Below, one piece after another: positions 2,218 to 29,890 of a DNA stretch of 64,000 nucleotides. The number at the start of each line of letters is the position of its first letter. Position 1 is the first letter of the stretch. The position numbers were made by a program, and so were the translations under genes. Origin of the DNA: a bacterium (GTDB lineage: Bacteria > UBA8248); contig OY843592.1 of the NCBI GenBank assembly GCA_963692865.2, positions 1,280,001 to 1,344,000 of the forward strand. The letters run 5' to 3'. The notes beneath the pieces were generated by a model. The model was not told the origin of the DNA. It worked only from the letters and a program-made list of their open reading frames with translations, and made no database searches.

Positions 2218-2366
2218 CTGCTTGCTCTGCTATTCGGGAAGTGGGTAGGAGTAATAGGGAAATTCAGTTCGGTTTTCCATGGCCTCCTCCACTACTCAAC
2301 CTCCCCCCCCACCCTTGACGGCGAAATCCCCCACCGAACCTTGCGCGGCAAGGACCCCCATTCACG

Positions 2367-2411: not shown

Positions 2412-2513
2412 TCAGGCGCTCGGCGCCTCTGATTGCAGAGTGAGTATTCGTACGGCAGCAAGCCCAGCGACACGCTCGTTGTTGTGATCGGTGAGTGCGA
2501 GGCTCAGCACTCT

Positions 2514-2596
2514 CCACCCGCGCATCCGCCGAGAAACGCCTCCAGGACAAACGCGAACGCGCCGAGAAGAAGAGGTTGAGGGGGAAGGTGGGGTAG
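2514..2596 (+). repeat. Near-identical direct repeat of arfB 3' end (att-like duplication)
   Basis: 2514-2593 aligns to 227-306 without gaps, with 4 mismatches in 80 bp; reads TRASAEKRLQDKRERAEKKRLRGKVG*. Confidence 0.95.
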
Positions 2597-2712
2597 GGGT
2601 GTGTGTTTTTCCTTGATCGATTTGACACGCAACAGGTAGACTCACGCTCCGCCCAGGTTTCTCTTCCGAGTGCGAATTGTGAAAGTACTAGGAAATTTTT
2701 AGGAGTCTACTT

Positions 2713-3684: not shown

Positions 3685-3699
3685 TCAGCACAAGTATTC

Positions 3700-5218: not shown

Positions 5219-5411
5219 TTGTTAGCTCCATATTGAACGTGCGAAGGTCTACTAGTTCATGAAAGAAATCTGCGCTTCTCGCACCCCCTATCGACCTAAC
5301 CCCCCGTCGAACCTTGCGCAACGGCAAAAGCGGCTTTCCGCTTGACCTGTTCGATTTCCGAAAGATAGATTTCGCATTATACATGATCGTGCTTATTGGC
5401 ATTCATATTTT

Positions 5412-5435
5412 GTAGGGGCCGTTCGCGAACGGCCC
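5412..5435 (+). repeat. GTAG-type REP palindrome
   Basis: GTAGGGGCCGTTCGCGAACGGCCC; inverted partner at ~5866-5889. Confidence 0.8.
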
Positions 5436-5472
5436 GATTGCTCTTTAGTTGTGAGTTCCGGGAGGAGAGGTA

Positions 5473-5844
5473 TTGGGCGTCGGCTTTGAGGAAATGCTGG
5501 AGCAGATACGCGCCGTCTCCGATTCTGAGTACGAAAAGGGCCGGCATTTCGAGCGGGTGATAAAGAAGTTCTTCACCGAAGACCCGCTTTACCGGGATCG
5601 CTTCTCGAACGTCTGGCTCTGGCCCGAATGGGCGGCGCAGCGGCTTGGTTTCGACGGAAGCGATACCGGAATCGACCTCGTGGCCGAGGAGCGCGAAGGC
5701 GGCTACTGCGCCGTTCAGTGCAAGTGCTACGCGCCCGACACGCGAATCTCGAAGCCGCACCTCGACTCGTTCATCTCCGCCTCCGCCCGCGACCCCTTCA
5801 CCGCCCGCATCGTGAACGGCCAGCCTCCCGCCATCGACCCGTAG
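5473..5844 (+). pseudogene. Internally deleted Type ISP restriction-modification/helicase gene (Mrr-like nuclease N-terminus only)
   Basis: EKGRHFE...VWLWPEW...DTGIDLVA...AVQCKCY...LDSFISAS is the N-terminal nuclease of LlaGI/LlaBIII-like enzymes; ORF only 123 aa. Confidence 0.8.
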
Positions 5845-5865
5845 AAGAATCCGTTTTTCACCACA

Positions 5866-6280
5866 GGGCCGTTCGCGAACGGCCCCTGCAATTGAGGCTT
5901 GGATTGACGGCATTCCGGCGCAGGCCGGAATCCAGAGCCGATGAGGATTAAGATGATCCGGTTTTTCATGTCCGCACCGCTCGGATGGAAAATGCCAAAG
6001 AGCAAAGAAGCAAAGGCAAGGTGAAATGTCCCGCGTGGGACATTTCTGGATTCCGCATTCTCTTCCTCATCGGGCGAGAATGATTGACGGAGTTACGGAC
6101 GAAATCGCAAGGGGTGTAGGGACAGGCCCCCGTGCCTGTCCGATGCCCTGTTCCGCAAACAGGGGGCAGGGCGGGCACAGTCGAGCTTCTCTTTCTCAGG
6201 AAACTCGACGCCCCTACGGACTTCCTCACCCCGGTCGGCTCCATACGCCGAATCACGTAATCGGGACTTTTCCAATACCC
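5866..6280. repeat. Cluster of palindromic repeats and a MITE-like right end
   Basis: REP GGGCCGTTCGCGAACGGCCCCTGC, ATTCCGGCGCAGGCCGGAAT, GTAGGGACAGGCCCCCGTGCCTGTCC; 6221-6280 resembles 33291-33354. Confidence 0.75.
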
Positions 6281-7321: not shown

Positions 7322-8167
7322 TCATTCCCTGGGGGTGAGGTCGAAGCCGAACCATTCGAGCGAGAGCCGCGAGAGCGTCCCATCCTCGGCCGCGGCGCCG
7401 ATGGCGGCGGAGAACATGTCCGCGAGCGCGCGGTCCTCCCTGCGGACGCCGACGCCGGTTCCCTCGCCCAGCAGACCGCCCGTGAAGCCGGGGCGCAGGA
7501 TTTTCAGCTTTCCCTTCGCTCTCTCGATCAAGGGCTTCAGGTAGGACATTTGGGCCAGGGCGGCGTCCACGCGGCCCCCCAGCAGGGCGCGGTCGAGTTC
7601 CCCCTGGACCTCGAAGGCGCGGATCCGGGCGGCGTCGGCCATGTGGGTTCTCAGGAAAATCTCGAACGTGGTGGCGGCCTGCGCGCCGAGCGTCCTGCCT
7701 GTGAAGGCCTTCCTGAGCGCCGCGACGGCGGCCCTCTCCCCCGCGTCCAGGGCGCCCAGCGTGACCGAGGCGGTCTTCGTCGTGACGCCCGCGAGGGGGC
7801 CGTCGGCCCGGACGGCGAAGGCGGCGGGCGCCGCGGCGTAGGCGCGCGAGAAGGCGATGCGTTTTTTTCGCTTCGCGGTGATCGAGACGCCGGTCATGAT
7901 CGCGTCGAACTCGCCCGCCCGGAGCGCGGCGATCATGCCCCGCCAGAGCCGCGGGATCAGGACGCATTCGACCTTCATGCGCCTGCACAGGTCGGCCGCC
8001 AGGTCGACTTCGAAGCCGACGAGCCGGCCCGAGGCGTCCTTGTCGTTCCAGGGGGGATAGGCCCCCTCCGTGGCGATGCGCACCACGCCGCCCGGCTTCC
8101 AGCCCGCGGCCTGCGCCGCTCCCGTGAGGGCGATGACGACGCCGAGAGCCGCCAGAAACACCTTCAT
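7322..8167 (-). CDS. Polar amino-acid/opine ABC transporter substrate-binding protein (family 3)
   Basis: Signal peptide; IATEGAYPPWN, GFEVDL, DAIMTGVSIT.KR, WFGFD. Confidence 0.9.
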   Translation of the reverse strand: MKVFLAALGVVIALTGAAQAAGWKPGGVVRIATEGAYPPWNDKDASGRLVGFEVDLAADLCRRMKVECVLIPRLWRGMIAALRAGEFDAIMTGVSITAKRKKRIAFSRAYAAAPAAFAVRADGPLAGVTTKTASVTLGALDAGERAAVAALRKAFTGRTLGAQAATTFEIFLRTHMADAARIRAFEVQGELDRALLGGRVDAALAQMSYLKPLIERAKGKLKILRPGFTGGLLGEGTGVGVRREDRALADMFSAAIGAAAEDGTLSRLSLEWFGFDLTPRE

Positions 8168-8574
8168 CGCGCGCCTCCTGTTTCGTGTCGCTGGTCGTTT
8201 CGATTATGAACTTCTCAAGGGGATTCACGCAAGCAAAAAGAGGGGGAGCGTGCGGCGAGGCATTGCGGGTGAGGGCCTTTCTGAGATGGTCTTCAAGGTG
8301 ATATGGGAGTATTTCGAGGCCTCGTAAGCTTCACCGGCTATGGGCCGCTTGTGAGGGTTCGAGATCGCTCGCAAGGGCGGCCCTTGCGCCAAGGGATGCG
8401 CATGTCATAGGGGCCGCTCGCGAGCGGTCCGGTTTCATGTAGTCTGTTTCTCCGCCTTAGAGTATCCGTGCAAGGGCACATAAGTTCTGGTACTATAATT
8501 CCAAAATGTTTCATGGAAGCGTAACGCATTTGCCAGTTCGCAATATCGATGTTGCAGATAGCAAAGGTTCGAAA

Positions 8575-9597
8575 ATGGTTATCACAAGAGTGAAGTTGGA
8601 GCGCTTTACGGCTTTCGAAAACCTTGATTTTAAGGCCTCACCTGGCATCAATGTTCTCATTGGAGCCAATGGAACTGGCAAAACCCATCTAATGAAAGTT
8701 GCCTACGCAGCCTGTGATGTTAGCAAGACCGAAGCAGATTTCGCAGAAAAGCTCATTCGCGTGTTTTTGCCTTCTGAAGGAGCCCCTGGACGGTTAGTCA
8801 AGAGGCGAGCCGTAAGTTCGCAGTGCGCAGTTGCCGTATTTCGTGGGAAGGCGAATATCAGAGCTACCTTTTCAAACCATATCAAGATTCCTAGGTCGAT
8901 TAAAGTTAGGCGCACAAGAGGCTGGATCGATAATCCTGTACAGAGCGTCTACATACCGGTAAAGGAAATGCTTGCGAACGCGCCAGGTTTTCGATCTCTT
9001 TACGGACAACGCGAGATTCATTTTGAGGAAGTTTATTCTGATATTCTTGATCGGGCCTATCGGCCTCTTTTGCGTGGTCCAACAGACCAGAAACGTAAGA
9101 AGGTTCTCCAAATTTTGAAAGATGAATTAGATGGGAAGGTGGATCTAAAGAATGACGAATTCTTCTTCCGAAGCAAACGTGGAAATTTGGAATTCACACT
9201 GCTGGCGGAAGGGTTACGCAAACTTGGACTACTTTGGCTTCTTATTCAAAATGGAACTTTGCTAGAAGGTTCTATTTTATTTTGGGACGAACCAGAAACC
9301 AGCCTCAACCCAAGACTTTTTGGCCCGTTGATTGAGATAGTTCTAGAACTCCAGAGGATGGGCGTGCAAGTTTTTATTGCGACACATGATTACGCGATAC
9401 TTAAAGAGTTGGATCTCCGAGTCAAGAAAGAAGACGAGATAGTTTTTCATTCATTGTATCAGGACAAGGGGAGTGGCGAGATAGAGCATCACTCGACAAA
9501 TGCCTATTTAAGCATTCATCCCAATGCTATCGCCGATGCTTTCACCAGTCTTTATAATCGGGAAGTCGAACGCACTCTAGGGATGCCACAGACATGA
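8575..9597 (+). CDS. ABC-type ATPase (AAA_15/AAA_21-like), paralog of 614..1696
   Basis: GANGTGKT, LAEGLRK, LFWDEPETSLNP, ATHD; start placed at MVITRVKL by alignment with the paralog. Confidence 0.88.
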   Translation: MVITRVKLERFTAFENLDFKASPGINVLIGANGTGKTHLMKVAYAACDVSKTEADFAEKLIRVFLPSEGAPGRLVKRRAVSSQCAVAVFRGKANIRATFSNHIKIPRSIKVRRTRGWIDNPVQSVYIPVKEMLANAPGFRSLYGQREIHFEEVYSDILDRAYRPLLRGPTDQKRKKVLQILKDELDGKVDLKNDEFFFRSKRGNLEFTLLAEGLRKLGLLWLLIQNGTLLEGSILFWDEPETSLNPRLFGPLIEIVLELQRMGVQVFIATHDYAILKELDLRVKKEDEIVFHSLYQDKGSGEIEHHSTNAYLSIHPNAIADAFTSLYNREVERTLGMPQT

Positions 9598-10100
9598 CAG
9601 TGATGACTGAAGGCAATATCAAGATGAATTTTCCGCAATATGCTGATGTCCGGAGATTTGACGGGCCAACGCATAGACTTTCACATTGCAGCATGAAAGC
9701 AATAGATTTCATCGTGGAGTTGACCGATCGAGTACTCTTCATTGAAATCAAGGACCCGCAGGATCCTCAAGCAAACCCCAATAGTAGCAATAAAACTATA
9801 GCGGAATTTCAATCAGGTGAAATGGATGAGATTTTCAAACTAAAGTTTAGGGACTCCTTTATTTATGAATGGGCTTCAGATAATCTTAAGAAAAAACCCA
9901 TCCATTTTTATGTGCTCATTGGCATTGAGACTTTAGATAAAGCTTTGCTTCTTAATAGAACCAATTCCCTCAAGACAAAACTCCCGGTTCGTTCTGTCTC
10001 AGAAGGAATATGGAAGAAACATATTGCCGAGGAATGCTTGGTATTTAACATTGAAACTTGGAACCAGTTCTTGCCAAATTTTCTAGTGTCTCGGATTTAA
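9594..10100 (+). CDS. Hypothetical protein, PD-(D/E)xK nuclease-like partner of the ATPase
   Basis: ATGA overlap; KAIDF-x10-IEIKDP, KFRDS; low GC. Confidence 0.7.
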   Translation: MTVMTEGNIKMNFPQYADVRRFDGPTHRLSHCSMKAIDFIVELTDRVLFIEIKDPQDPQANPNSSNKTIAEFQSGEMDEIFKLKFRDSFIYEWASDNLKKKPIHFYVLIGIETLDKALLLNRTNSLKTKLPVRSVSEGIWKKHIAEECLVFNIETWNQFLPNFLVSRI

Positions 10101-13209: not shown

Positions 13210-13487
13210 GGGGTTGTTGATAAAACCTCTCGAAGCCGTGGAGGTGCGATGGTTTTGTAGGGGCGGCCCTCTGTGGCCGCCCGTATCGGAGGCCTCGGAC
13301 AGGCACGGAGGCCTGTCCCTACGGTTGGCGGCGTATTTTCCCTCTTCAGTCGAAACCGGCTTCTCGGGACCCTCGGCGAATTTGGTTTTCGTTCGTCATT
13401 CCGGCTTTCGCCGGAATGACGGCAGTGATCGATTCCGACCGATGAGGGAGGAATCGACTGAGCGGGAAGGGGTTTTACAACAACCCC
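13210..13487. mobile_element. MITE-like element with terminal inverted repeats and REP cargo
   Basis: GGGGTTGTTGATAAAACC ... GGTTTTACAACAACCCC enclosing two GTAG REPs and CGTCATTCCGGCTTTCGCCGGAATGACG. Confidence 0.65.
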
Positions 13488-14452: not shown

Positions 14453-16678
14453 ATGGACAAGCGACTCGACCCCTACCGCTTTGACGTGGGAAGCGCCCGC
14501 GTGGAGCCCGAAGACCCGGTCGTGGCGGGAGCGTTCTTCACCCGGAAGATCGTCTTCACGGCGGGCAAATACGGTGTGGACGAGGGCGCGCAGATACTCG
14601 TCTGCAAGCGGCTCTCGAGCGACATGGAGATCCCCCAGTTCACGGACCCCGCGGCGTCCGGCTACGTGAGCGTCTCCTGCTCGAACCCGGAAGTCGGCTT
14701 GACGCTCAGCTATCAGGAACAGGGCTATATTGATGATTGGCGCTCCGGCGTCGCCGTCCGGGTCGCGCGGGGGTATCTCTGCCAAGGCGATGAGGTAACG
14801 CTCGTCCTGGGCGACACCAGCGGCGGCGGGCCGGGGTTGCGCGCGCAGACGTTCCCCGAGGCGCGCCACACGTTCAAGATCGTGGTGGACACCTTCAACC
14901 GCAAGCATTTCTACGAACTGGAACATGACCCCGAAATCCGCATCGTGGGCGGCGCGCCCGAGACCTGGCATCTCGCGTGCCCCCAGACGCCCGCGCGGGG
15001 AGAGCCGTTCTCCGCCATCGTGCGCGGCGTGGACAGCTGGGGGAACCCGGCGGAGGAATTCACGGGCGAAGTGTCGGTCGGAAAGAGCCGCTCGGGCTGG
15101 CAGGAAGAGGACGCCGTACCGGGGAAGGTGGAATTCTCGGCCGGCGACGGCGGCGTGAAGCGTGTGGGCGGCGCGCGGTTGACGGGCGAGGGGCCTTACC
15201 GCTTGCGCTTGGAAGACCCGGCGGGGCTGGTATCGTTGAGCCCGCCCATTCTGCCCAAAGCCCCGGACGATCCTTATTCGCTATTCTGGGGGGACATCCA
15301 CGGGCAGACGCGCTCCACGGTCGGCACGGGCACGGTGGAGGAGTATTTCCGTTTCGCGCGGGACAAGGCGGGCGTGGACGTCGCCGCGTGGCAGGGCAAC
15401 GATTTCAGGGTCCGCAAGGAGGACTGGGCGGAGGTGGTGCGCGAGTGCAAGGCGTTCAACGAGCCGGGCCGCTTCGTCACGCTCCTGGGCTATGAGTGGT
15501 CGGGCACGCGTTCAGGCGGCGGCGATTACAACATCTACTACGCGGGCGATGCGGGAACCATCCACAGAAGCTCCCATGCGGGCGTGGACGATCTTTCGGA
15601 CGTTCATGAGGACAGGTTTCCTATATCGGCTCTTTGGGACACCTTCCGGGGAAGGAAGGACGTGATGAGCGTCGCCCACGTGGGCGGACGGGCGTGCAAC
15701 CTCGATTTCTTCGATCCCGAATTCGTGCGCCTCGCGGAAATCCACTCCCACCACGGCACCTTCGAGTGGTTCGCGGAAGATGTGCTCGCGCGCGGCTTCC
15801 GCGTCGGCTTCATCGGCGGGAGCGACGACCACACAGGCCGCCAGGGGCTGGTCTACCCGAACCGCCGCTCGAACAACGTCGTCACCTTCGACGTGAAGGG
15901 CGGCCTCATGGGCCTCTACGCCAAGGAACTCACGCGCGAGGCCGTCTGGGAGGCGATGCGCGCGAGGAGAACCTACGCCACGAACGGCGAGCGCATCTAC
16001 TTGAAGACCGCCTGCGGCGATGCCCTCATGGGCGAGGAGGTGGAGACGGGAGGTCCGCCGACGATCCGCGTCGAGGTCCATGGCGCGGCGCCGCTTCTGG
16101 ACGTGGAACTGAAGCGCGGCGCCGAAACCATCCACCGCCATCCGGTGAACGCCCCCGAAGCCGCCGGCCGCGCGCGGCGTATCCGCGTGCAGTGGAGCGG
16201 GGTGACGCAGAAAAGCGGGCGCGACAAGAAGGTCGAATGGCGCGGCGGAATCGCGCTGGATAAGGGCGCGGTGCTCTCGCACACGCCCTACGCGCTCGAT
16301 CAGTACGACGACGCCGTAACCCGCGTATCGAACAAGGTGCTCCGCTTCGCCACGGCGACCTCGGGCGACCCCGACGGCGTGCTCATCGACCTGGACGCCC
16401 CCGCCGACGCCCGCCTTTCCTTTTTTAGCAACGTCAAGAGTTTCACCCTGCCCCTCGGCGAGATAACGGCGGAACCTACCATCATCGAAGCCGGCGGCGT
16501 GAACATCCGGGTTCTCGTCGCCGAAGTCGGCGCGACCCTCAAGGACTGGAGCGCGCGCTTTCAGTTCACCGACGAGGACGCCTCCACCGATGCCGTGAAC
16601 CCCTACTGGGTGCGCGTCTTACAGGTCGACGGCGGCCAGGCCTGGTCGAGTCCGGTGTATGTGAAGAGGGTGGGGTGA
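14453..16678 (+). CDS. DUF3604/PHP-like metallohydrolase
   Basis: FWGDIHGQT, GYEWS, AHVGGR, EIHSHHG, GGSDDH, RRTYATNGERI, C-terminal WSSPVY. Confidence 0.8.
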   Translation: MDKRLDPYRFDVGSARVEPEDPVVAGAFFTRKIVFTAGKYGVDEGAQILVCKRLSSDMEIPQFTDPAASGYVSVSCSNPEVGLTLSYQEQGYIDDWRSGVAVRVARGYLCQGDEVTLVLGDTSGGGPGLRAQTFPEARHTFKIVVDTFNRKHFYELEHDPEIRIVGGAPETWHLACPQTPARGEPFSAIVRGVDSWGNPAEEFTGEVSVGKSRSGWQEEDAVPGKVEFSAGDGGVKRVGGARLTGEGPYRLRLEDPAGLVSLSPPILPKAPDDPYSLFWGDIHGQTRSTVGTGTVEEYFRFARDKAGVDVAAWQGNDFRVRKEDWAEVVRECKAFNEPGRFVTLLGYEWSGTRSGGGDYNIYYAGDAGTIHRSSHAGVDDLSDVHEDRFPISALWDTFRGRKDVMSVAHVGGRACNLDFFDPEFVRLAEIHSHHGTFEWFAEDVLARGFRVGFIGGSDDHTGRQGLVYPNRRSNNVVTFDVKGGLMGLYAKELTREAVWEAMRARRTYATNGERIYLKTACGDALMGEEVETGGPPTIRVEVHGAAPLLDVELKRGAETIHRHPVNAPEAAGRARRIRVQWSGVTQKSGRDKKVEWRGGIALDKGAVLSHTPYALDQYDDAVTRVSNKVLRFATATSGDPDGVLIDLDAPADARLSFFSNVKSFTLPLGEITAEPTIIEAGGVNIRVLVAEVGATLKDWSARFQFTDEDASTDAVNPYWVRVLQVDGGQAWSSPVYVKRVG

Positions 16679-18274: not shown

Positions 18275-18605
18275 GTTGTTGTAGGGGCGGACCCATGTGT
18301 CCGCCCGCCTTTCGTTTTGCCCGCGGATGAATCCATGCGAAGGCAAAAGGCGGGCGGTTCTCGAACCGCCCCTACGGGCGAAACCCGCAACCGCGGATTA
18401 CCGTCATTCCGGCGTCAACCACGACCAGGGCGGGAGAGAATGCGGAGTCCGCAAGCGGCGAGGGGCGATACGTCCAGGTATTTCATTCCGTCTTTGTCGA
18501 GGCATGAATCAAAGCGAAAAGTAAAAAATCAAAATGGATTCCGGCTTTCGCCGGAATGACGGAGGAGGGCGGTCCGCAGGGGGACAGGTCGCGACCTGTC
18601 CCTAC
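18275..18605. repeat. Intergenic repeat cluster between convergent genes
   Basis: GTAGGGGCGGACCCATGTGTCCGCCC, GGGCGGTTCTCGAACCGCCCCTAC, dRS3-like pair 18402-18561, GGGACAGGTCGCGACCTGTCCCTAC. Confidence 0.8.
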
Positions 18606-18609: not shown

Positions 18610-19707
18610 TCATCCCCTGGCCCCCTCCAAAGCCGCGAGGATTCTCTCCCTCGCCTCCCGGTGCTCCTCACATCCGACGACTTCGAGCATCTCCTTGCGC
18701 CAGTTCGGGCGGCAGTAGCTTTCCTTGAGCCTGCGTATCCGGTCCGATGACGCTTCTTCCTGCGCCGGGGATATGTCGCCGTCCCGGATGGCCCGCGCAA
18801 CCCCATCGACCGCTCGTTCCTGCGCGTCTTCTGAATGACAGATGAGGGCGATGTCGGCTCCTGCGAGGATGCTTTGAAGCGCGGCCTCTGCGGGGTCGTC
18901 TATCGCGCCCATGTCCAGATCGTCGGTGACGGCGACGCCCCGGAAGCCGAGTGCACCGCGCAGAATCTCCTGGAGAAAAATAGAGGACATGCTCGCGGGT
19001 GCCGTCTCGTCTATTGCTTCGAATACGGCGTGGGCCGCCATGACGCAGGCGGGAGGCGCGCGGCGGATGAGATGCCGGAAGGGCTCCAGTTCGCGCGCTC
19101 TCAAGTCATCGAGCGTGAGGCTGGAAGTCGGCAGCACGTCGTGGGGGTCAGGCGCCATGTCCCCGATGCCGGGGAAATGCTTGGCGCACGCGGCGACGCC
19201 CGTTTCTTGTAAGCCTTGCGCTGCGGCTTCGCCCATTCGAGCGACGACCTCTGGAGTCGCCCCGTATGCGCGATCGCCGATGACGGCGCACTCGGAGTTC
19301 GTGAGTATGTCCACGACGGGGGCGAAGTTCATATTCACGCCGACCGCTTCGAGTTCCGCCCCGGTGATCCTTGCTGCTTCCCGGGCGAGGGCGGGGCCGC
19401 CCGCGGCGCCGAATCCCCGCGCCGCCGGAAAGATCGTGAAGTCGGCAGACAGCCTGCTCACGCGCCCGCCTTCCTGATCTATTCCCACGAGGAGGGGAGC
19501 TTCGAGCGGGGAGGCGAGGGCGGCAGTTTGCAAGGAGGCGATGAGCGCCCCTGTCTGCGCGGCAGATTCGATGTTTCGCTGGAACAGGATGACGCCGCCG
19601 ATTCTGCCCGCGCGAACGCGCTTGATGAGAGAGGCCGGGGCGACCGTGCCCTCGAAACCGGCCATGATGCGCCGACCGGCCCGGACCTCGGGCGCCTGCT
19701 CGTTCAT
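18610..19707 (-). CDS. nagZ: Beta-N-acetylhexosaminidase (GH3)
   Basis: IDQEGGRVSRL, NFAPVVD, KHFPGIGDxxxDPH, TDDLDMGA. Confidence 0.92.
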   Translation of the reverse strand: MNEQAPEVRAGRRIMAGFEGTVAPASLIKRVRAGRIGGVILFQRNIESAAQTGALIASLQTAALASPLEAPLLVGIDQEGGRVSRLSADFTIFPAARGFGAAGGPALAREAARITGAELEAVGVNMNFAPVVDILTNSECAVIGDRAYGATPEVVARMGEAAAQGLQETGVAACAKHFPGIGDMAPDPHDVLPTSSLTLDDLRARELEPFRHLIRRAPPACVMAAHAVFEAIDETAPASMSSIFLQEILRGALGFRGVAVTDDLDMGAIDDPAEAALQSILAGADIALICHSEDAQERAVDGVARAIRDGDISPAQEEASSDRIRRLKESYCRPNWRKEMLEVVGCEEHREARERILAALEGARG

Positions 19708-19714
19708 TCGCGCC

Positions 19715-20407
19715 CTAGCCTTCGCGCATCCGCGTGATGACGAAAGGCTCCGCCATCGTTAGGCCCGCCGCACGGCCTGCGTCTTCGAGCCGCTGGTGGG
19801 CGCGCTTCTCGAAAGCCTCGGGGTTTTTGATCTGGCACTTGTGCGCGCACACCGCGCGGACTTTCACGTCGAAGGTCTCCGCGATGTCCACGAAAAAATT
19901 CGGCTCGCGCGTGTTGAGATAGAGGAGGTTCTTTGTGTGGTGCGCTTCTATCCCTGCGTAGGTGAGTTCGGGCAGGAAATGGTGGTCCCGCGCGTAGACC
20001 ACCGCCTTGAACGTGGCGTGGCCGATGGCCTGGTGGTCGGGGTGCTGGTAGTAGGTGCGCCAGGGGTCGTGGGTCAGGATGGTGTCGGGCTTGAAGTGGC
20101 GGATCAGGAAGGCGATCTGGTTCCTGAACGCGCGCGTGTCCTCGAGTTCCCCGTCGCGGTGGCGCAGGAAGATGGTCTCCTTGACGCCCAGTATGCGGGA
20201 GGCTTCGAGCTGTTCCGCCTCGCGTATCCCGGCGAGGTCGAAGGGGCTGACATCGTCCTTCGTGCCCTTGTCCCCGTTCGTGCAGACGACCGTCCGAACC
20301 GTCGCGCCCTCCCGCGTCCATCGGGCGATGCTGCCCCCCGCGGACAGTTCCGCATCGTCGGGGTGGGCGACGACGACGAGTATGTTTCTGAATTCCGTGT
20401 GACTCAA
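19715..20407 (-). CDS. PIG-L family N-acetylglucosaminyl deacetylase (MshB/BshB-like)
   Basis: AHPDDAEL, TNGDKG, REAEQ, HPDH. Confidence 0.9.
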   Translation of the reverse strand: MSHTEFRNILVVVAHPDDAELSAGGSIARWTREGATVRTVVCTNGDKGTKDDVSPFDLAGIREAEQLEASRILGVKETIFLRHRDGELEDTRAFRNQIAFLIRHFKPDTILTHDPWRTYYQHPDHQAIGHATFKAVVYARDHHFLPELTYAGIEAHHTKNLLYLNTREPNFFVDIAETFDVKVRAVCAHKCQIKNPEAFEKRAHQRLEDAGRAAGLTMAEPFVITRMREG

Positions 20408-20425
20408 TTCTGGTTCCTTCCGTGT

Positions 20426-21730
20426 TTATGAAGCGTGGGGTGAAGAAAGCGCGGCCCCCTGACGCAGGCGCGCCCAGATATCGAGTTCCGCCTCCGCAAC
20501 CCGCGCCCAGGCGAACGATTCCGCCCATTGGGTGGTTTTGCGGTTGGGGCGTTCGCAGGGTTTTTCCAGCAGTTGGAGCATCTTCCGCGCGTAGGCGTTC
20601 GTGTCGCCGTCCGCGATGAGGTGGCCGCTTTTGCCCTCGCGCACCGCTTGCGATATGCCGCCCACTTCGAAGGCCAGCGTGTTCAGCCCGCACGCGGCCG
20701 CCTCGACCGCCGTCATGCCGAAGCTCTCATAGCGCGAGGGCAGGGCGAAGACGTCGGCCGCGGAATAATAGAGCGGCAAATCTTCCTGCGGCTTGGCTCC
20801 TGTGAGGAGCAGGCTCTCCGCCACGCCGAGCCTTTGCGCGAGCTCTTCCAATCGCGCGACTTCGGCTCCCTGCGCGGGGGAGGCGAAATCCGCTGCGCGA
20901 TAGCCGTCATCGTCTCTCATCGCGCCCTCTCTTGTTTCGCCGCCAATGTGCAGGAGGCGCGCATCGAGTCCGGGGCGTTCCTTGCGCATGAGGGCGAAGG
21001 CCTCGACGAGGCGGTCGAGTCCCTTCACGCGCTCGATGCGGCCCACGCTCAGGACGTATGCGAGATCGGGCTCTAAGCCCAGCCGCGCGCGCGCCTCGCT
21101 CTTCGGATGGGGCCTGAACCGCTCCAGGTCCACACCGCAGGGGACGACGTGGACTTCCACCCCGCCCGATATCTCGTCAATCGCGCGCGCCTCGGCGGGC
21201 GATGAAGCGAGAAGCGCGTCCGCCGACCTCATGAGGCCGGGTTCGGTGCTGAGCCGCATGTCGGACTCGCGCCTGGTGTCTCCAGGGAGCGCGTCGTTCT
21301 TGAGGGCGGCCAGCGTGTGGAAGCGAATAGAGAGGGGAACGCCCCACGTTTTGGCGAGAATCTCGCCCGCAAGGCCCGAGAGCCAGTAGTGCGCGGAAAC
21401 GCCGTCGTAGGAGATTCCGTGTTCCTCCCCGAAGGCGAGAATGCCCTCGGCGAAGGCGTCCGCCCATTCGACTTGCGCGTCCTTGTCGAGTCTTTCTTGG
21501 GGCCCCGCCTCTATACGGATGAGGCGCGCGCCGTCGGCGATAAGGACTTCTCCCGCGGCCGAAGCCGATTCCAGGCGGGTGAAGACGTCCGCACGGACGC
21601 CCAGGCTCGCGAGCGCCTTCGCGATCTCGCGGGCGTAGACGTTCATCCCGCCCGTGAAGTCTCCTCCCAGGGGGGCGAGGGGGTCGGTGTGCATCGAGAG
21701 GATGGCGAGGCGGGGCGATTCCGTGCTCAT
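20426..21730 (-). CDS. GT4 glycosyltransferase, MshA-like
   Basis: SMHTDPL..LGGDFTGGMNVY, HYWLSG, FHTLA, GRIERVKG, PSRYESFG match D-inositol-3-phosphate glycosyltransferase-type motifs. Confidence 0.88.
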   Translation of the reverse strand: MSTESPRLAILSMHTDPLAPLGGDFTGGMNVYAREIAKALASLGVRADVFTRLESASAAGEVLIADGARLIRIEAGPQERLDKDAQVEWADAFAEGILAFGEEHGISYDGVSAHYWLSGLAGEILAKTWGVPLSIRFHTLAALKNDALPGDTRRESDMRLSTEPGLMRSADALLASSPAEARAIDEISGGVEVHVVPCGVDLERFRPHPKSEARARLGLEPDLAYVLSVGRIERVKGLDRLVEAFALMRKERPGLDARLLHIGGETREGAMRDDDGYRAADFASPAQGAEVARLEELAQRLGVAESLLLTGAKPQEDLPLYYSAADVFALPSRYESFGMTAVEAAACGLNTLAFEVGGISQAVREGKSGHLIADGDTNAYARKMLQLLEKPCERPNRKTTQWAESFAWARVAEAELDIWARLRQGAALSSPHAS

Positions 21731-22746
21731 CGCGCGCTCCTCTCGATCCGCACGCGCATCACGCGCTCCTCGCGCGCGCCGAAGCGGTACTTGTAGGCCT
21801 CATCGCCCCTCAAGAGGTCGAAGGACGCGCGGCCTGCCTGAATCGCTTCCTCCACGTTGTGGGCGAGCAGCACCAGGCCCGCGCTCAGTTCGTGCTCCAC
21901 AGGGTCGAAGCCCGAGTTGTAGAGATAGATTCTCTCGCCGTAGTCGAACGAGAGATTGGCAGCGACGGGATGGCCGTCCACGCGCATGACGCTCAATTCC
22001 AGACAGCCGAGTTCGAGCATCGCCCGGGTCATGTCCTCGAAGAATGATCTTCTGTCGGCGTTCCAGAAATCCGCCTTCTCCTGCTGGCTCAGCGCGTGGA
22101 GGGCGATGAAATCCTCCAGATCGGATGCGAGCGCGTCCGCCGACTCGGTCCGCTCGTATTCCAGCCCCGCCTCCATGTTGGCCTTGCGAATCTTGCGCCT
22201 CAGGTCGCGCTCGTCCCTGGGCGCGAGCATCCCGGTGTATTCATCCCACGAACCGGGAAGCGGGATGACGGGGCAGACTTCTTCTTCCGAGACCGAGGCG
22301 GCCCCTCCCGTCAACTCCTCGATAGCCGCGACCGTGGGGGAGGCTTCGGGAATCCCGCGCAGGGAGAGTTCGCGCCAACCAGGAGCGTCCGGCTCGTCGA
22401 GGGCGGCGAGAACCGCCCGCCAGCAGGCGAGGTGCGCTCCGTCCGCGGCGATGATGTCGAGGTAGTCCGAGAGGTCGTCCCCTCCCGTCAGGCGCAACCG
22501 CCCGCCCTCGCTCAGCACGAAGGGCGCCACGCCCGCGAGCGCGCCCGCCTCGTCGCGCAGGGCGTAGACGCGAAGCTCGCCCGCGCCGAAGTTCCGCCAC
22601 CACGCGGCGTGCCACGCGGGGTCGTAGAAAGGGTGCGCGTGGGCGGAGCGGGCCATCAGCGCGCGCCATTCGGCCTCTAAATCCGTGAACGCCTCGGGCG
22701 ACGTGAAGGCTTCTATCTGCAGCGAGGAGCATGAACTTTGCGACAT
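21727..22746 (-). CDS. GNAT-superfamily protein (CelD/BcsL, Acetyltransf_6-like)
   Basis: LSDYLD, LPGSWDEY, LYNSGFDP, FDLLRGDEAYKYRFGA. Confidence 0.88.
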   Translation of the reverse strand: MSQSSCSSLQIEAFTSPEAFTDLEAEWRALMARSAHAHPFYDPAWHAAWWRNFGAGELRVYALRDEAGALAGVAPFVLSEGGRLRLTGGDDLSDYLDIIAADGAHLACWRAVLAALDEPDAPGWRELSLRGIPEASPTVAAIEELTGGAASVSEEEVCPVIPLPGSWDEYTGMLAPRDERDLRRKIRKANMEAGLEYERTESADALASDLEDFIALHALSQQEKADFWNADRRSFFEDMTRAMLELGCLELSVMRVDGHPVAANLSFDYGERIYLYNSGFDPVEHELSAGLVLLAHNVEEAIQAGRASFDLLRGDEAYKYRFGAREERVMRVRIERSAR

Positions 22747-22797
22747 CGGGATTCCTTCGCATCCATCGCGCCTGTGGGCGCGCGTTGATTTCGTCCG

Positions 22798-23391
22798 CTA
22801 CGCGAGCTCCAGCCCGACGAACGTGGCCGTCGGGTGTCCCTCCAGGGGGTCAGAGAGGTCCGAGCGGCTGAAGACGAAAAACCGGTTGTGGTAGAGCGTC
22901 TGAAACTGGATGAAGCCCGCCTTGTCCACGCCGCGCCTGGAAGCCGTGTTGCCCGCCTCGACGAAGATGAGAGAGCGCGCGAGGCCCAGCTTTTCCCCGT
23001 ATTCCAGCGCGCGCCTCAGTACGGCGGGATAGAGGTTCCTCCCCCGCCAGGGCTCCAGGGTGAAGGCGTCGTATAGATAGATTTCCTTGGGTCCGGGCTT
23101 CACGGCCTTGTCGATCTCCTCCACGCCCACCACGCCGCGCGCGCCCCAGATGTAGCTCACCGCCTTGCCGTCCTCGAGCGCGACGAAACACTTCTCGCCC
23201 CGCTCGAAGCGCCTCCCCGTCAGGCGCTCGCCCTGCACGTCGGTGATGAGCCGGCGATTCTCCGACGCGCCGTCGAGGATGACGTGCTCCACCTCGATTC
23301 TCGCCTCGCTCGGCGGTACTGCTTCGGTGTGCGGGAAATCGTACAGGCAAAGCTCCACCGACGTGAGGAATATCGATTTCAGGAAATCCAA
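22798..23391 (-). CDS. GNAT family N-acetyltransferase
   Basis: LYDAFTLEPWRGRNL acetyl-CoA loop; NTASRRGVDKAGF. Confidence 0.85.
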   Translation of the reverse strand: MDFLKSIFLTSVELCLYDFPHTEAVPPSEARIEVEHVILDGASENRRLITDVQGERLTGRRFERGEKCFVALEDGKAVSYIWGARGVVGVEEIDKAVKPGPKEIYLYDAFTLEPWRGRNLYPAVLRRALEYGEKLGLARSLIFVEAGNTASRRGVDKAGFIQFQTLYHNRFFVFSRSDLSDPLEGHPTATFVGLELA

Positions 23392-23406
23392 AAGGGGATG
23401 ACTCCT

Positions 23407-24423
23407 TTATGCGAGAAACGCTTCGAGGAAAGGCTCGAGCAATGCGCGGAGGCGGGCCAGATCTCTCCTCTTTTCGAAATGCCCTAGCACCATCCTGGCG
23501 GTATGCGGAATGCTCGCCAGATAGCGATCCGCCCCCCGCGCCGTCTTCTGATAGGCGAAGGTGCCGATGGCCTTCAGGTTTCGCTGTATGGCTGTCCCGC
23601 GCAGGGCGCGTTCGTATTCTTCTTTATCCGAGAAGAGGCGGTGGCCGCAAGTCTCCCAGTAGCGGGCGATGAGGTAATACCGCGCGGAGTCCCCGAGGTC
23701 AACGTAGCTGTCATAGACCAAAGACGCCGGATCGTAGGTGGCCGGCCCCATGCGCGCGTCCTGAAAATCGATTGCGATCACCGCATCGTCCAGAACCATC
23801 AGGTTCCTGCCGTGGTAGTCGCGGTGCGTGAGGCGGAAGGGAATCCGGCAGATTTCCTCGCACAACGAGCGGAACGCCGCATCCAGCGCGCGCACATCCG
23901 TCTCCATCCCGAGGAGGCTCTCGAAGGCGTATTTTCGCGTGTGGTGGAGTTCGTTCGTGAAAAATTCGGCGTCGAAGCGCCGCGTGAGGGCGAGCCTGCC
24001 GCCCGCGGACGCGCTCGGAGCTTCCTGCATGGCGGCCATCATCTCCATGGCGGCGTCGTAATGCGGCCCTGCTTCCTCCCATCCGCCGCGCCGCCATGCG
24101 TCTTCGAGCGATTCATCGCCGCAGTCTTCCAGCAGGATGACGCCCGCCTCCCCGTCCACCCCGAAAATCTCGGGAACCCTGACGCCGATCTCCTTGAAAT
24201 GCGCCTGCACGTCGATGAAGGGGAGCGTCTCTCGGCTGAACGGCTCCGGGGTGATCATACCGACCGAACTTGGGCGTGCGCCCTCTGCGTGGATGAACCG
24301 GACGTAATCGCGCGTCGAGGCGTCGCCCGCAAGCGGGGTCATGTACGACACGCCGGCGCCGAAGCAATCGCGCGCCAGGGCCGTCAAGCGCTCGTGCGCC
24401 TGCTCGGTGAGGCTCGCCTTCAT
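23407..24423 (-). CDS. APH-family kinase, AmgK-like anomeric MurNAc/GlcNAc kinase
   Basis: LAGDASTRDY, LLEDCGD, THRDYHGRNLM, IDFQDARMGP..YD, QRNLKAIGTF; start placed at MKASL (4-nt overlap with the upstream gene). Confidence 0.85.
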   Translation of the reverse strand: MKASLTEQAHERLTALARDCFGAGVSYMTPLAGDASTRDYVRFIHAEGARPSSVGMITPEPFSRETLPFIDVQAHFKEIGVRVPEIFGVDGEAGVILLEDCGDESLEDAWRRGGWEEAGPHYDAAMEMMAAMQEAPSASAGGRLALTRRFDAEFFTNELHHTRKYAFESLLGMETDVRALDAAFRSLCEEICRIPFRLTHRDYHGRNLMVLDDAVIAIDFQDARMGPATYDPASLVYDSYVDLGDSARYYLIARYWETCGHRLFSDKEEYERALRGTAIQRNLKAIGTFAYQKTARGADRYLASIPHTARMVLGHFEKRRDLARLRALLEPFLEAFLA

Positions 24424-25271
24424 GCGGGACTCGGCTTGATCTGTGAGGTGAGCGCCCGCATGGCGCGTGTTGCGGCGGCCAGCGTCCTGGCGTAGGGCTC
24501 GTCTTTTCTTCTGAGTTCGAGCGCGAGCGATCCCGAATAGCCGCAGGCGTCGAGCGTCGTGAAGAAAGAAGGCCACTCGAACGCGCCCTCTCCGGGTATC
24601 AGGTGCGCGTCGCTTCGGCCGTCGTTGTCGTGCAGATGCGTCGCGGCGCAAAACGGCGCGAGGCGCTCGACCCCGCCCGGCGCGTTTTCCCCCTCGGTGA
24701 TGAGGGCGTGGCCGGTGTCGATGCAGGTTTTGAGCCTCGGGTGGCCGATGCGGGAGACGAAATCAGCCAGAGGTTCGGCGCGGCCCAGGGCGGAGGGGAT
24801 GTTCTCGATCGCGATGACGGCATCTGACTCATCCGCCACGGGGAGAAGCCGCGCGATGCTCGCTTCCAGCGCCTCGCAGGTGTCCTCATCTCCCGCTTCG
24901 CCCGGCGCGCTCGGGTGGATCACGGCGACCCTCGCGCCCAGGGGGCGGAAGGCGCGCAGGGCTTGAATCGTTTTATCGATCGCCGCCTCGCGGGCGTCCT
25001 TATCGGGAGCGGCGAGGGAGAGCCAGCGCCCTTGTCTCGCCTCGGCGAGATCCGCATAAAAAGGCGCATGGAAGGTGGATGTCGAGAGGGAGAGGTCGGA
25101 CACCCAGCCCTTGAGGTTTTCAAGTCTTTCCTTATCGTTCACGTCGAAATGGGGCGTCATCGCCCACAACTCGATTTTATCGAATCCGGCGTCGGCCGCT
25201 GCTCTTAAATGCTCGAAGCGGAGCGGTTCATAGGCGAACAGATGCGCAGATAGGGCGAGATCGGGTGTCAA
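24420..25271 (-). CDS. Sugar phosphate isomerase/epimerase (xylose isomerase-like TIM barrel)
   Basis: FHAPF, VIHP, AIENI, CIDTGHA, THLHDNDG..DAHL.PGEG, LEL; TTG start inferred. Confidence 0.85.
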   Translation of the reverse strand: MTPDLALSAHLFAYEPLRFEHLRAAADAGFDKIELWAMTPHFDVNDKERLENLKGWVSDLSLSTSTFHAPFYADLAEARQGRWLSLAAPDKDAREAAIDKTIQALRAFRPLGARVAVIHPSAPGEAGDEDTCEALEASIARLLPVADESDAVIAIENIPSALGRAEPLADFVSRIGHPRLKTCIDTGHALITEGENAPGGVERLAPFCAATHLHDNDGRSDAHLIPGEGAFEWPSFFTTLDACGYSGSLALELRRKDEPYARTLAAATRAMRALTSQIKPSPA

Positions 25272-25364
25272 GGGTTTTCCTTCGTTCAGGGGGCGGTGAA
25301 GCGCGCTTGATGGGAGCCGATTATACGCTCCCTGAGATGAGAGCGGCAACGCGGAGCCGGAGGC

Positions 25365-25525
25365 GGGGTTGTTGAGAAAGCCCGAAGAGGGAGAGTTTGC
25401 CGTCATTCCGGCTTTCGCCGGAATGACGGTGTTGGTCAGTTCCGAGCGACGCGGACTTTTTCAACAACCCCCTCAAGGGGGGAGTGAATTTCGGTGCGCT
25501 CCTTTTGGGCTTCTTCGACAACCTC
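25365..25525. mobile_element. Short MITE-like element with palindromic cargo
   Basis: GGGGTTGTTGAGAAAG ... CTTTTTCAACAACCCC (25365-25471) enclosing palindrome 25401-25428, followed by CCCCCTCAAGGGGGG. Confidence 0.65.
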
Positions 25526-25612: not shown

Positions 25613-25700
25613 GAAGTTTTCAGATTGATTAAACAGTGATTATCCCCGTGTGGTTTCACCTCTTCGCTCGGGATGGTTTGCGTCCCCAGGAGGCGGTTTC

Positions 25701-26435
25701 TTGCTCAGGCCGGTGAGAAAAACGAGGCTCTATGAAGACGTGGTGGAGCAGATCCAGCAGCTCATCCGCACGCGCAAGCTCACGCCCGGCGACAGGCTGC
25801 CCTCTGAGCGCGAACTCGCGGCGACGCTCGGCATCGGGCGGCCTTCGGTGCGCGAAGCCCTGCGCGCGCTCGACACCACGGGCCTCATCGAGGTGAGGAG
25901 CGGGCAGGGCGCTTTTCTCAGAAACCTCACGGTGGACCCTTATCTCGCCACGGTGCGCGAGAGCCTCGCGTTTCTGCTCGACGTGAAGGAAGACACCCTC
26001 CTCGAACTCTGGGAGGTGCGCCAGGGGCTGGAGGAGCAGATCGCGCGCCTGACGGCGGAGCGCAGAACCGAAGCGCAGATCGAAAGCCTGCGCGGCCATA
26101 CCGAGGAGATGCGAAAGCGCATCGACAGGCCCGAGGCCTTCGTGCGCGCGGGCGTCGCCTGGCACCGCGCGCTGTGCGAGGCGGCGGAGAACGCCGTCTT
26201 GCGGACGGTGTGGGAGGCCATCGCAGGGTTGATTGAGAAGAGCCAGCGCAAGATCATCGGAACGCCCGGCCAGCCGGACGAGGCGCTTCTTCAGCACGAG
26301 AAGCTGTTGGCTGCGGTCGAGGCGGGCGAGCCCGAATGCGCCGCGCTCGCCATGCGCGAGCACATGGCGGCCGAGGGCGCGCGGCTCAAAGAAGCGCTGG
26401 CCGTATCACGAAACGGAAGCAGGCTGCGCGTCTGA
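25701..26435 (+). CDS. FadR/GntR family transcriptional regulator
   Basis: PGDRLPSERELA..LGIGRPSVREAL HTH, FCD domain; TTG start after AGGAGG. Confidence 0.93.
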   Translation: MLRPVRKTRLYEDVVEQIQQLIRTRKLTPGDRLPSERELAATLGIGRPSVREALRALDTTGLIEVRSGQGAFLRNLTVDPYLATVRESLAFLLDVKEDTLLELWEVRQGLEEQIARLTAERRTEAQIESLRGHTEEMRKRIDRPEAFVRAGVAWHRALCEAAENAVLRTVWEAIAGLIEKSQRKIIGTPGQPDEALLQHEKLLAAVEAGEPECAALAMREHMAAEGARLKEALAVSRNGSRLRV

Positions 26436-29340: not shown

Positions 29341-29890
29341 GGGGTTGTTGGAGAAGACCTTATTTCCTGATTCGGTGTATAGAGCCGACCGGGAAGGAAG
29401 GGTTCGACGCGAGGGGGTGTAGCCGGACAACCCCTCCTCGGGTTTGTCCGGCCCTCCGTGGTTGTCCTTTTGTAGGATGGTTACAATCAGGACAGGCACG
29501 GAGGCCTGTCCCTACATACCCTCTACTTGCAAGGCCGTATGTGGGGTTTTTCAAAAGCCCCTTGAGGGTCGGGCACAATCAACGAGAGAGGAATTTCACT
29601 CCCCCCCCCTTGAGGGGGCTGTTGAAAAATCCCTCGACGCAGGAAAACCACCGTCATTCCGGCGAAAGCCGGAATCCATTTTACGCCTTTTGCCTTTCGT
29701 CGGGTTTCTCGCGCCTCGGCGGGGAATGAAACGCCGTCATTCATTCATCCGCATCCGCAAATGGATTCCGGCTTTCGCCGGAATGACGAACGAAAATCAA
29801 ATTCGTCGTGGGCCCCGAGAAGTCGGTTCCGACCGAAGAGGGAGGAACCGCCGCCTACCGTAGGGACAGGTCGCGACCTGTCCCTACCAG
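29341..29890. repeat. MITE-like element (29341-29561) and repeat cluster
   Basis: GGGGTTGTTGGAGAAGACC ... GGTTTTTCAAAAGCCCC; dRS3-like pair 29652-29788; perfect palindrome GTAGGGACAGGTCGCGACCTGTCCCTAC. Confidence 0.75.

Follow-up and report, generated by a model that had tools for sequence, protein, structure and literature searches.

Which metabolite is made by the seven tightly packed genes that lie on the minus strand at positions 18610-25271 of a 64,000-nt stretch of the bacterial contig OY843592.1 (assembly GCA_963692865.2)? This stretch, at its full length, is called the window below. It corresponds to G000:C1:1280001-1344000 in our numbering, G000 being a genome of 4.15 Mb in 8 contigs with 97.4% completeness and 6.7% contamination. 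A preliminary description had proposed that the genes combine peptidoglycan-sugar recycling with a mycothiol-like biosynthetic set lacking the cysteine ligase MshC, in a bacterium outside the Actinobacteria. The proposed non-actinobacterial host fits the nearest public records, which are those of Nitrospinota/Nitrospinaceae, and the same records fit a host related to the nitrite oxidisers of the phylum Nitrospinota. Our answer, for which we claim a confidence somewhat short of even, is that the genes specify the cytoplasmic synthesis of an N-substituted glucosaminyl-inositol, a metabolite of the mycothiol type.

According to this answer, inositol-3-phosphate would be made by Ino1, which is encoded on the same contig but outside the operon. 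An MshA-like glycosyltransferase of family GT4 would move N-acetylglucosamine (GlcNAc) from UDP-GlcNAc onto inositol-3-phosphate, and a PIG-L deacetylase would strip the N-acetyl group, freeing the amine of glucosamine (GlcN). The longer one of two GNAT proteins, which resembles Fem-type transferases, would acylate this amine in place of the ATP-dependent MshC, most likely with an amino acid from an aminoacyl-tRNA, and the short GNAT would N-acetylate the new amino group with acetyl-CoA in place of MshD. The amino acid would most likely be cysteine, resulting in mycothiol or a close analogue. A NagZ-type hexosaminidase and a kinase probably supply GlcNAc-1-phosphate, and a TIM-barrel protein may act on the inositol or the phosphate part. 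We infer the substrates, the involvement of tRNA, the identity of the amino acid and the thiol nature of the product; the data that bear on them are presented below.

Operon structure and conservation

The seven open reading frames (ORFs), which were assigned to families with Pfam and NCBIfam (Table 1), form one operon. Two pairs of genes overlap by 4 nt, namely at 24420-24423 (ATGA, where the kinase start lies over the stop of the TIM-barrel gene) and at 21727-21730, and the remaining intergenic gaps measure 15, 51, 18 and 7 nt. In number, strand, packing and families the genes are thus as they had been described beforehand. The G+C content of the operon (0.64-0.66) is the same as that of its flanks.

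Conservation was analyzed in 41 genomes (G000 and 40 relatives, with 13 relatives fetched for gene order), in 80 genome loci with an alignment to the long GNAT, in 80 metagenome loci, in 77 of which the long GNAT was seen, and in a sample of 61 Chloroflexi genomes from one class. The long GNAT was found in 33 of the 41 genomes, including all 22 of the genus. The order TIM barrel, kinase, short GNAT, long GNAT, GT4, PIG-L, NagZ is the same across the Nitrospinota genus, family and order, the relatives that keep it reach down to 31-49% identity, and across the family the operon has a fixed position beside YchF. A sister family keeps the five-gene core from the kinase to PIG-L, while two small genomes retain long GNAT, GT4 and PIG-L only. 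On the same strand in the 80 genome loci we found GT4 (38 loci), short GNAT (28), PIG-L (24), kinase (21), TIM barrel (20) and NagZ (18), with all seven genes present in 18 loci. The identical order in these 18 loci and in relatives at 31-49% identity argues that the seven-gene arrangement goes beyond chance.

The GT4 gene directly follows the long-GNAT gene in 38 of the 80 genome loci, and the short-GNAT gene adjoins the long-GNAT gene in 28; among the metagenome loci GT4 is adjacent in 14 of 77. Loci with GT4 include records titled Entotheonella/Tectomicrobia, Thermodesulfobacteriota, Dehalococcoidia, Anaerolineae and Desulfarculaceae, and one 'Gammaproteobacteria' metagenome-assembled genome (MAG). 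The widest conserved core consists of short GNAT, long GNAT, MshA-like GT4 and often PIG-L, and it recurs in Chloroflexota, Tectomicrobia/Entotheonella and Thermodesulfobacteriota; the long-GNAT module as such turned up in genomes and metagenomes at several hundred loci. Of the 61 Chloroflexi genomes, 44 harbor the long GNAT and 39 an MshA-like GT4 (245-424 bits): 35 genomes have both, 9 the long GNAT alone, 4 the GT4 alone, and 13 neither. Where both occur, they adjoin each other in 18 of 35 cases. Five genomes contain the triad long GNAT-GT4-PIG-L, in which the adjoining PIG-L is the best-scoring homologue of the PIG-L in the window. The GT4, PIG-L and GNAT genes are thus conserved together across phyla, as the preliminary description required.

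In Anaerolineae (loci L058-L104) the long GNAT occurs without GT4 in a neighborhood which is still conserved: a 750-aa protein on the opposite strand without a Pfam family (34 loci) is followed by PP2C, FHA, radical SAM, MobA-like NTP transferase and class-V aminotransferase genes. We considered the latter five neighbors of the lone long GNAT, together with CoaE, as pathway members and rejected them; their presence was taken as lineage synteny. Apparently broken copies were found in relatives at G042:C1:4703950-4705172, G019:C1:1824768-1825769 and G041:C1:1876225-1877247. The MshA-like gene is split into two frames in one Chloroflexi genome, and in three genomes the long-GNAT gene is interrupted by a single in-frame stop codon (TGA or TAA). 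Such copies may be sequencing errors of long-read assemblies or pseudogenes.

Glycosyltransferase, inositol phosphate and deacetylase

The best NCBIfam family of the GT4 protein is MshA (TIGR03449), with 305.1 bits (equivalog cut-off 462.5) and with a wide margin over other families: the BshA model gave 86.3 bits (cut-off 273.7) and the sucrose-phosphate synthase models at most 78 bits. The best PDB match is MshA of Corynebacterium glutamicum (194 bits). In PMC12182360, R231, K236, E316, F318, L320 and E324 of MshA are given as contacts to UDP, and G23 and H133 as contacts to inositol phosphate. According to a phmmer alignment, G23, H133, R231, K236, E316, F318 and E324 of the C. glutamicum enzyme are identical in the GT4 of the window, and L320 is replaced by M. 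Also identical are K78, Y110, T134 and R154, which we take to be phosphate ligands in MshA.

As had been asked of the genome in connection with the preliminary description, an ino1 gene is present. The inositol-3-phosphate synthase is encoded on the same contig and matches PF01658 over the cut-off (128.8 bits); its best family is TIGR03450, where its 433 bits do not reach the cut-off of 638. The gene is free-standing, with no lipid, di-myo-inositol phosphate (DIP) or CDP-alcohol transferase genes beside it. In one MAG (locus L049), ino1 is located directly upstream of long GNAT-GT4-PIG-L and unrelated genes follow. In the Chloroflexi sample, the MshA-like GT4 and Ino1 co-occur (cross-table counts of 30, 9, 8 and 14 genomes). 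We consider it probable that the core of the product is GlcN-inositol.

The second PDB match of GT4, the cyanobacterial sucrose-phosphate synthase Tll1590, scores 180 bits, which is close to the 194 bits of MshA, and thus the acceptor could be another phosphorylated sugar. If GT4 acted on such a non-inositol substrate, which the TIM barrel and the kinase might deliver, a GlcN-containing disaccharide derivative would result. A ketose-epimerase-like TIM barrel and a sugar-kinase-like APH protein indeed open the operon, and ino1 is adjacent in only 1 of the 80 genome loci and in none of the 80 metagenome loci (77 with long GNAT). Two further findings weigh against the mycothiol-type reading as such: an Ino1 occurs in 37 of the 41 genomes, six of the eight without long GNAT among them, and is therefore not operon-specific, and in the Chloroflexi sample it is only weakly associated with the long GNAT (cross-table counts of 29, 15, 9 and 8 genomes). 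However, the NCBIfam score of GT4 for MshA is far above those for the sucrose-phosphate synthase models, most carriers from outside Nitrospinota lack the TIM barrel and the kinase, and both locus L049 and the Chloroflexi sample connect the MshA-like protein with Ino1. We regard a sugar-phosphate acceptor other than inositol phosphate as improbable.

The next protein of the proposed pathway, the PIG-L of the operon, contains AHPDD and HPDH motifs in its translation. It can be read as a deacetylase of a terminal GlcNAc with an aglycone that the sequence does not specify. Its best NCBIfam model is BshB1 (108.8 bits, cut-off 182.5), and the MshB model TIGR03445 yields 54.7 bits (cut-off 224). Of the mycothiol-like set without MshC that had been proposed, the MshA-like GT4 and the absence of MshC stood up to analysis, and Ino1 is present. 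The deacetylase fits less well, being closer to chitobiose deacetylase than to MshB or BshB: its best PDB match is an archaeal diacetylchitobiose deacetylase (126 bits, compared to 55 bits for BshB and 45 bits for MshB).

The two GNAT proteins and the nature of the product

It had been suggested that the long GNAT replaces MshC and the short GNAT replaces MshD in the synthesis of a new glucosamine-based thiol. The folds and the conservation of the two proteins speak for such roles, while the thiol, the tRNA and the amino acid are inference. The structural model of the long GNAT (pLDDT 91.2) has two GNAT domains in what is predicted to be the Fem arrangement, and in Foldseek, the comparison that had been proposed, FemX takes the ranks 1-7, with TM scores (TMq) of 0.68-0.69 for FemX of Weissella viridescens. 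FemX of Staphylococcus aureus, MprF and aminoacyl-phosphatidylglycerol synthases follow with 0.53-0.63 (0.53-0.62 for the latter two), and the aminoacyl-tRNA-dependent Sbb17/Sba18, which were solved with the amino sugar streptothrisamine, with 0.58-0.62. Tandem GNATs using acetyl-CoA score lower (VipF 0.39, GlcN N-acetyltransferase 0.44, 2wpw 0.51), and MshD is absent from the best 50 matches. Identity to the Fem-type matches is 13-15%. In the PDB, the sole match to a profile of 29 long-GNAT sequences was FemX, at weak E values of 0.035-0.17. A 13-sequence profile gave no match there at E<=1, and a C-terminal sub-alignment gave chance matches only. The search with the orthologue P0057 resulted in a weak FemA match outside the catalytic region; in Pfam, P0057 reaches FemAB (24.5 bits, cut-off 24) and the orthologue P0044 reaches FemAB_like (29.9 bits, cut-off 27).

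In the 29 sequences W27, W49, G88, D94, G290, G314, E316 and K319 are invariant, R313 is nearly so, and Y318 is kept in at least 90%. Also invariant are R183, R184 and K185, which are located on a helix. A 2026 review (PMC12945691) states that Lys305 is the catalytic residue of FemX, that Phe328-Lys329 is essential in DhpH-C, with Lys329 analogous to Lys305 of FemX, and that streptothrisamine receives glycine from Gly-tRNA through Orf11. The pair Y318-K319 near the C-terminus of the long GNAT resembles Phe328-Lys329, and the Orf11 reaction is a precedent for the aminoacylation of an amino-sugar amine. We regard the chances that the long GNAT uses an aminoacyl-tRNA as donor as evenly balanced. 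No biochemical work on PF13480/Acetyltransf_6 was found in the searched literature. The short GNAT, modelled with a pLDDT of 92.8, matches acetyl-CoA GNATs in Foldseek, among them the MshD structures 1ozp (rank 8) and 2c27 (rank 15), and its invariant residues include R116, G117, N148, S151 and G159-F160.

The matches of the long GNAT to MprF and to aminoacyl-phosphatidylglycerol synthases raise the possibility of a lipid product. The substrate of GT4 and PIG-L would then be a lipid such as phosphatidylinositol, as it is for PIG-A/PIG-L, and its head group would receive an amino acid from the long GNAT in the manner of MprF. GT4 weakly matches the model of GlcNAc-phosphatidylglycerol synthase (63.5 bits, cut-off 480), and PIG-A is described as most like MshA in PMC12182360. 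On the other hand, FemX, the substrate of which is soluble, scores above MprF, Ino1 has no CDP-alcohol transferase beside it, and neither the operon nor the conserved cores contain a recognizable membrane-protein, flippase or lipid-synthase gene, as judged from families and with no formal transmembrane prediction. We therefore consider a lipid product very improbable.

The genome was also searched for other thiol pathways. With the MshC model TIGR03447 (cut-off 485) the genome has one match of 287.6 bits, which resembles cysteinyl-tRNA synthetase (CysRS); MshC itself is a relative of CysRS. None of the 41 genomes and none of 18 carriers from other phyla has an MshC over the cut-off. The best MshD match in the genome (TIGR03448, cut-off 163) has 38.5 bits, BshC gave no match, and the best BshA match has 91.5 bits, below the cut-off of 273.7. 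GshA (PF04262) gave no match in the genome; the GCS2 protein is a carboxylate-amine ligase of the YbdK type, and the GshB-like match is RimK and not GshB. Thus, by predicted gene content, none of the pathways for glutathione, bacillithiol or canonical mycothiol is complete in the genome. This agrees with the preliminary description, since neither bshC nor a canonical mshC or mshD that would imply plain mycothiol was found over the cut-offs in the genome. The computational checks that had been suggested all turned out in favor of that description, which as a whole is partly supported.

Two genes located elsewhere on the contig, together with the ino1-containing locus L049, add support to the mycothiol-type reading. 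The first one (G000:C1:2545373-2546437; locus L221, 6359-7453) encodes a zinc-dependent alcohol dehydrogenase with 489 bits for S-(hydroxymethyl)mycothiol dehydrogenase (MscR, a mycothiol-dependent formaldehyde dehydrogenase; cut-off 513), the next best family being the glutathione-dependent enzyme with 286 bits. An MscR-like gene (481-507 bits) was found in 26 of the 41 genomes, 25 of which also contain the long GNAT, and it is missing from seven of the eight genomes without long GNAT, the exception being an 87%-complete MAG. Among 14 control genomes, a match to it at E<=1e-100 was obtained in Corynebacterium only. The second gene (G000:C1:2018387-2019235; locus L222) encodes another PIG-L protein, an amidase-like one of the long MshB/Mca type, with 196 bits over the whole Mca model (cut-off 277) and 190.2 bits for MshB (G000:C1:2018393-2019112; cut-off 224). 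Its best PDB match is MshB of Mycobacterium tuberculosis, and it is present in 30 of the 41 genomes.

The MscR-like gene is surrounded by genes for an M24 peptidase (divergent), a YCII protein and a large FAD/FeS oxidase. An M24 peptidase is encoded beside the operon, too; the two peptidases are 23% identical, and we do not claim a link between them.

Several observations weigh against the mycothiol-type reading or against a thiol as its product. The genomes are related and thus not independent, so that kinship inflates statistics on the counts, and the incompleteness of MAGs blurs absences. All models of the mycothiol family stay below their curated cut-offs (MshA 305/462, Ino1 433/638, MscR 489/513, Mca 196/277). 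The MscR-like gene is missing from eight of the 33 Nitrospinota relatives with long GNAT, and no such gene turned up in the 61 Chloroflexi genomes, although the long GNAT is present in 44 of them. Mycothione reductase does not exceed the cut-off in the genome, where the best matches are lipoamide dehydrogenase and an FAD oxidoreductase. In carriers from other phyla (G110-G115 and G043, some of them Dehalococcoidia-like) there are two to three matches of the CysRS family with best scores of 298-372 bits, the range for some Dehalococcoidia-like carriers being 318-372 bits, and one copy in such genomes might be a divergent MshC-like ligase; matches of at least 318 bits come mostly from multi-match genomes, the single-match exceptions being G120 (348.7) and G041 (320.2). 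The long GNAT of the window matches PF13480 only, and not FemAB (PF02388) or FemAB_like (PF04339), and BspF, another PF13480 protein, carries an acyl-transferase name in NCBIfam. In its second GNAT domain the long GNAT has an invariant S288-x-G290, which could serve CoA binding. Finally, K319 is a candidate equivalent of FemX Lys305 by its position only.

A part of these data would also be in line with a non-thiol product, in which a core of GlcN-inositol or GlcN-polyol carries an amino acid other than cysteine or an acyl group from acyl-CoA, and which could be a compatible solute, a signal or a soluble glycoconjugate. This applies to S288-x-G290, to the restriction of the long GNAT to PF13480, to the lack of a mycothione-type disulfide reductase over the cut-off and to the absence of the MscR-like gene from the Chloroflexi sample; moreover, no sequence feature fixes the donor or the amino acid. 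However, the fold search ranks aminoacyl-tRNA transferases well above the tandem GNATs using acetyl-CoA, and the conservation of an acetyl-CoA-type GNAT beside the long GNAT fits a sequence of events in which an amino acid is added and then capped. In addition, the distribution of the MscR-like and the Mca/MshB-like gene in Nitrospinota follows that of the operon, and no other pathway for a low-molecular-weight thiol is complete in the genome. In our opinion a non-thiol product is unlikely. A cysteine thiol we propose tentatively, as it is itself somewhat doubtful; the product could also be plain mycothiol made by non-orthologous enzymes and not a new thiol.

If the mycothiol-type reading is extended to other phyla, then Nitrospinota and many Chloroflexota, Tectomicrobia and others might make mycothiol or a close cysteinyl-GlcN-inositol thiol as a redox buffer, with a Fem-type transferase using Cys-tRNA for MshC and a single-domain GNAT for MshD. 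This extension is doubtful. To our knowledge, mycothiol is regarded as confined to Actinobacteria; if the extension is true, mycothiol-type thiols reach far outside this group, and Nitrospinota include the main marine nitrite oxidisers. A Fem-type enzyme that ligates cysteine from tRNA would be a non-orthologous replacement of MshC and would represent a new role of aminoacyl-tRNA in cofactor synthesis. In the accessible text of the searched literature no low-molecular-weight thiol of Nitrospinota is described, and the joint mentions of Nitrospina and mycothiol that were read concern other organisms. Nothing was found there on Nitrospina and bacillithiol, and no description of this system was found in the accessible text.

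Accessory genes, surroundings and comparison with known systems

The kinase, the TIM barrel and NagZ are, in the mycothiol-type reading, lineage-specific accessories. NagZ and the TIM barrel were found in the operon only within one order and in some records titled Nitrospinaceae or Nitrospinota, and conservation is lowest for NagZ and the kinase. The NagZ protein is over the cut-off of its model NF003740 (207 bits). With 102.7 and 73.3 bits for the two AmgK models (cut-offs 550 and 500), the likeness of the kinase to AmgK is distant; its sole solved relative is 3csv, an uncharacterized 'aminoglycoside phosphotransferase' (88 bits), and the ESM Atlas gave nothing beyond 'APH'. MurU is not over the cut-off in the genome (best match 126 bits, cut-off 250). 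Still, uridylyltransferases of the GlmU type are present, and thus GlcNAc-1-phosphate could reach UDP-GlcNAc. The best NCBIfam match of the TIM barrel is the CbiR phosphodiesterase (49 bits, cut-off 105), followed by the FrlC epimerase, and its best PDB matches are MJ1311 and ketose 3-epimerases. It may be an isomerase/epimerase or a phosphoesterase; speculatively, it could dephosphorylate GlcNAc-inositol-phosphate.

These results weaken the idea that the pathway is fed by recycled GlcNAc, since NagZ and the TIM barrel are mostly confined to one order, the kinase is far below AmgK and MurU is not over its cut-off. They also bear on the possibility that the genes serve the salvage of cell-wall sugars or chitobiose, with GT4 and the GNATs as passengers, or that they belong to an aminoglycoside-like secondary-metabolite cluster. 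For this speak the true NagZ, the nearness of PIG-L to diacetylchitobiose deacetylase and the kinase, whose best families are the AmgK models, as well as the combination of a GT4 with a PIG-L deacetylase, which is the paromamine logic of aminoglycoside pathways. But it is short GNAT-long GNAT-GT4-PIG-L that forms the cross-phylum core, and not NagZ or the kinase, and the AmgK and MurU scores are far below the cut-offs. Unlike a secondary-metabolite island, the operon has native G+C and its fixed place beside YchF across the family, and there is no cyclitol synthase, aminotransferase or dehydrogenase among the seven genes. A salvage or secondary-metabolite function is thus extremely improbable.

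Table 1. Genes of the operon and features at its borders (positions in the window).
Feature	Position	Strand	Evidence
TIM barrel, xylose-isomerase-like (AP_endonuc_2)	24420-25271 (longest ORF to 25406)	-	PF01261, 134 bits
APH-fold kinase, distantly AmgK-like, candidate sugar 1-kinase	23407-24423	-	PF01636, 69.9 bits
Short single-domain GNAT, candidate acetyl-CoA N-acetyltransferase with MshD-like role	22798-23391	-	PF00583, 29.5 bits
Long double-GNAT, Fem-type fold, candidate aminoacyl transferase on the glucosamine amine	21727-22746	-	PF13480, 112 bits
MshA-like GT4, candidate UDP-GlcNAc:inositol-phosphate GlcNAc transferase	20426-21730	-	TIGR03449, 305.1 bits
PIG-L/LmbE-family de-N-acetylase	19715-20407	-	PF02585, 117.5 bits
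NagZ-type GH3 beta-N-acetylhexosaminidase, peripheral member	18610-19707	-	PF00933, 250.6 bits; NF003740, 242.7 bits
Sigma-70-like promoter site TTGCCG-18-TATAAT, upstream of the TIM-barrel gene	25320-25349	-	10/12 consensus matches (consensus match alone)
Terminator-like hairpin after NagZ	18538-18557	-	copy of a repeated palindrome
GntR/FCD regulator, divergent; possible regulator, membership uncertain	25650-26435	+	PF00392, PF07729

The promoter-like site lies inside the longest ORF version of the TIM-barrel gene, which favors the TTG start at 25271; alignments with TIM-barrel homologues start at residues 13-51 of the long ORF. An ORF at 19704-20693 was rejected as a wrong frame over the PIG-L gene, because its translation is of low complexity and rich in Arg and Pro. 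The operon is flanked by ychF in convergent orientation and, on the other side, by the divergent GntR/FCD gene, which is kept beside it in 14 of the 80 genome loci; the M24 peptidase gene and an HMGL-like gene lie beyond. Upstream of YchF, a protein of 741 aa (14453-16678) has a partial match to DUF3604 only.

The perfect 20-nt palindrome ATTCCGGCGAAAGCCGGAAT occurs in 11 copies in the window (at most 2 mismatches), with 0 expected. The sites are distributed within 5912-63978, e.g. at 13398-13417, 18538-18557, 25405-25424, 29656-29675, 29765-29784 and 63959-63978. The copies often form inverted pairs about 100 nt apart and are present on both sides of the operon, the one at 25405-25424 just upstream of it. 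The palindrome looks like an intergenic repeat of the repetitive extragenic palindromic (REP) type. The regions 1-6000 and 8001-10000 of the window have a G+C content of 0.48-0.52 in comparison to about 0.64 elsewhere and are possibly foreign or mobile DNA. No tRNA and no Rfam family was found in the window.

Among the known systems, the NagZ-AmgK-MurU recycling pathway shares with the operon a true NagZ and a kinase for which the AmgK models are the best families. It differs in that the kinase (103 vs 550 bits) and MurU (126 vs 250 bits) are far from the respective cut-offs, and the genes in question are accessories of a conserved core here. Bacillithiol synthesis by BshA, BshB and BshC follows the same logic of GT4, PIG-L and cysteine addition, and BshB1 is the best NCBIfam match of the PIG-L in the operon. 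Nevertheless, BshA (86 vs 274 bits) and BshB1 (below 182.5) do not reach their cut-offs, BshC gave no match, and the GT4 is much closer to MshA. With the Fem-type transferases (FemX/FemABX, the C-domain of MprF, Orf11/Sba18 of streptothricin-type pathways, DhpH-C, PacB and VlmA) the long GNAT has in common the double-GNAT fold, a basic helix and, as judged by position, an aromatic-Lys pair near the C-terminus. In contrast to them it belongs to PF13480 and not to FemAB, with 13-15% identity, and an acceptor of the GlcN-glycoside type in the context of cofactor biosynthesis is not described for the family in the searched literature.

The actinobacterial mycothiol pathway (Ino1, MshA, MshA2, MshB, MshC, MshD) is matched by the presence of Ino1, by a GT4 which has MshA as its best family, best structure and source of identical contact residues, by a PIG-L gene next to GT4 and an N-acetyltransferase gene in the operon, and by MscR-like and MshB/Mca-like genes elsewhere in the genome. 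There are also differences. MshC and the tandem-GNAT MshD are missing here, a double GNAT of the Fem type would substitute for the former and a single-domain GNAT for the latter, the deacetylase of the operon is not MshB-like, and the scores are below the equivalog cut-offs. Last but not least, the msh genes of Actinobacteria are scattered, whereas in this Nitrospinota host the genes of the proposed pathway are clustered in one operon.

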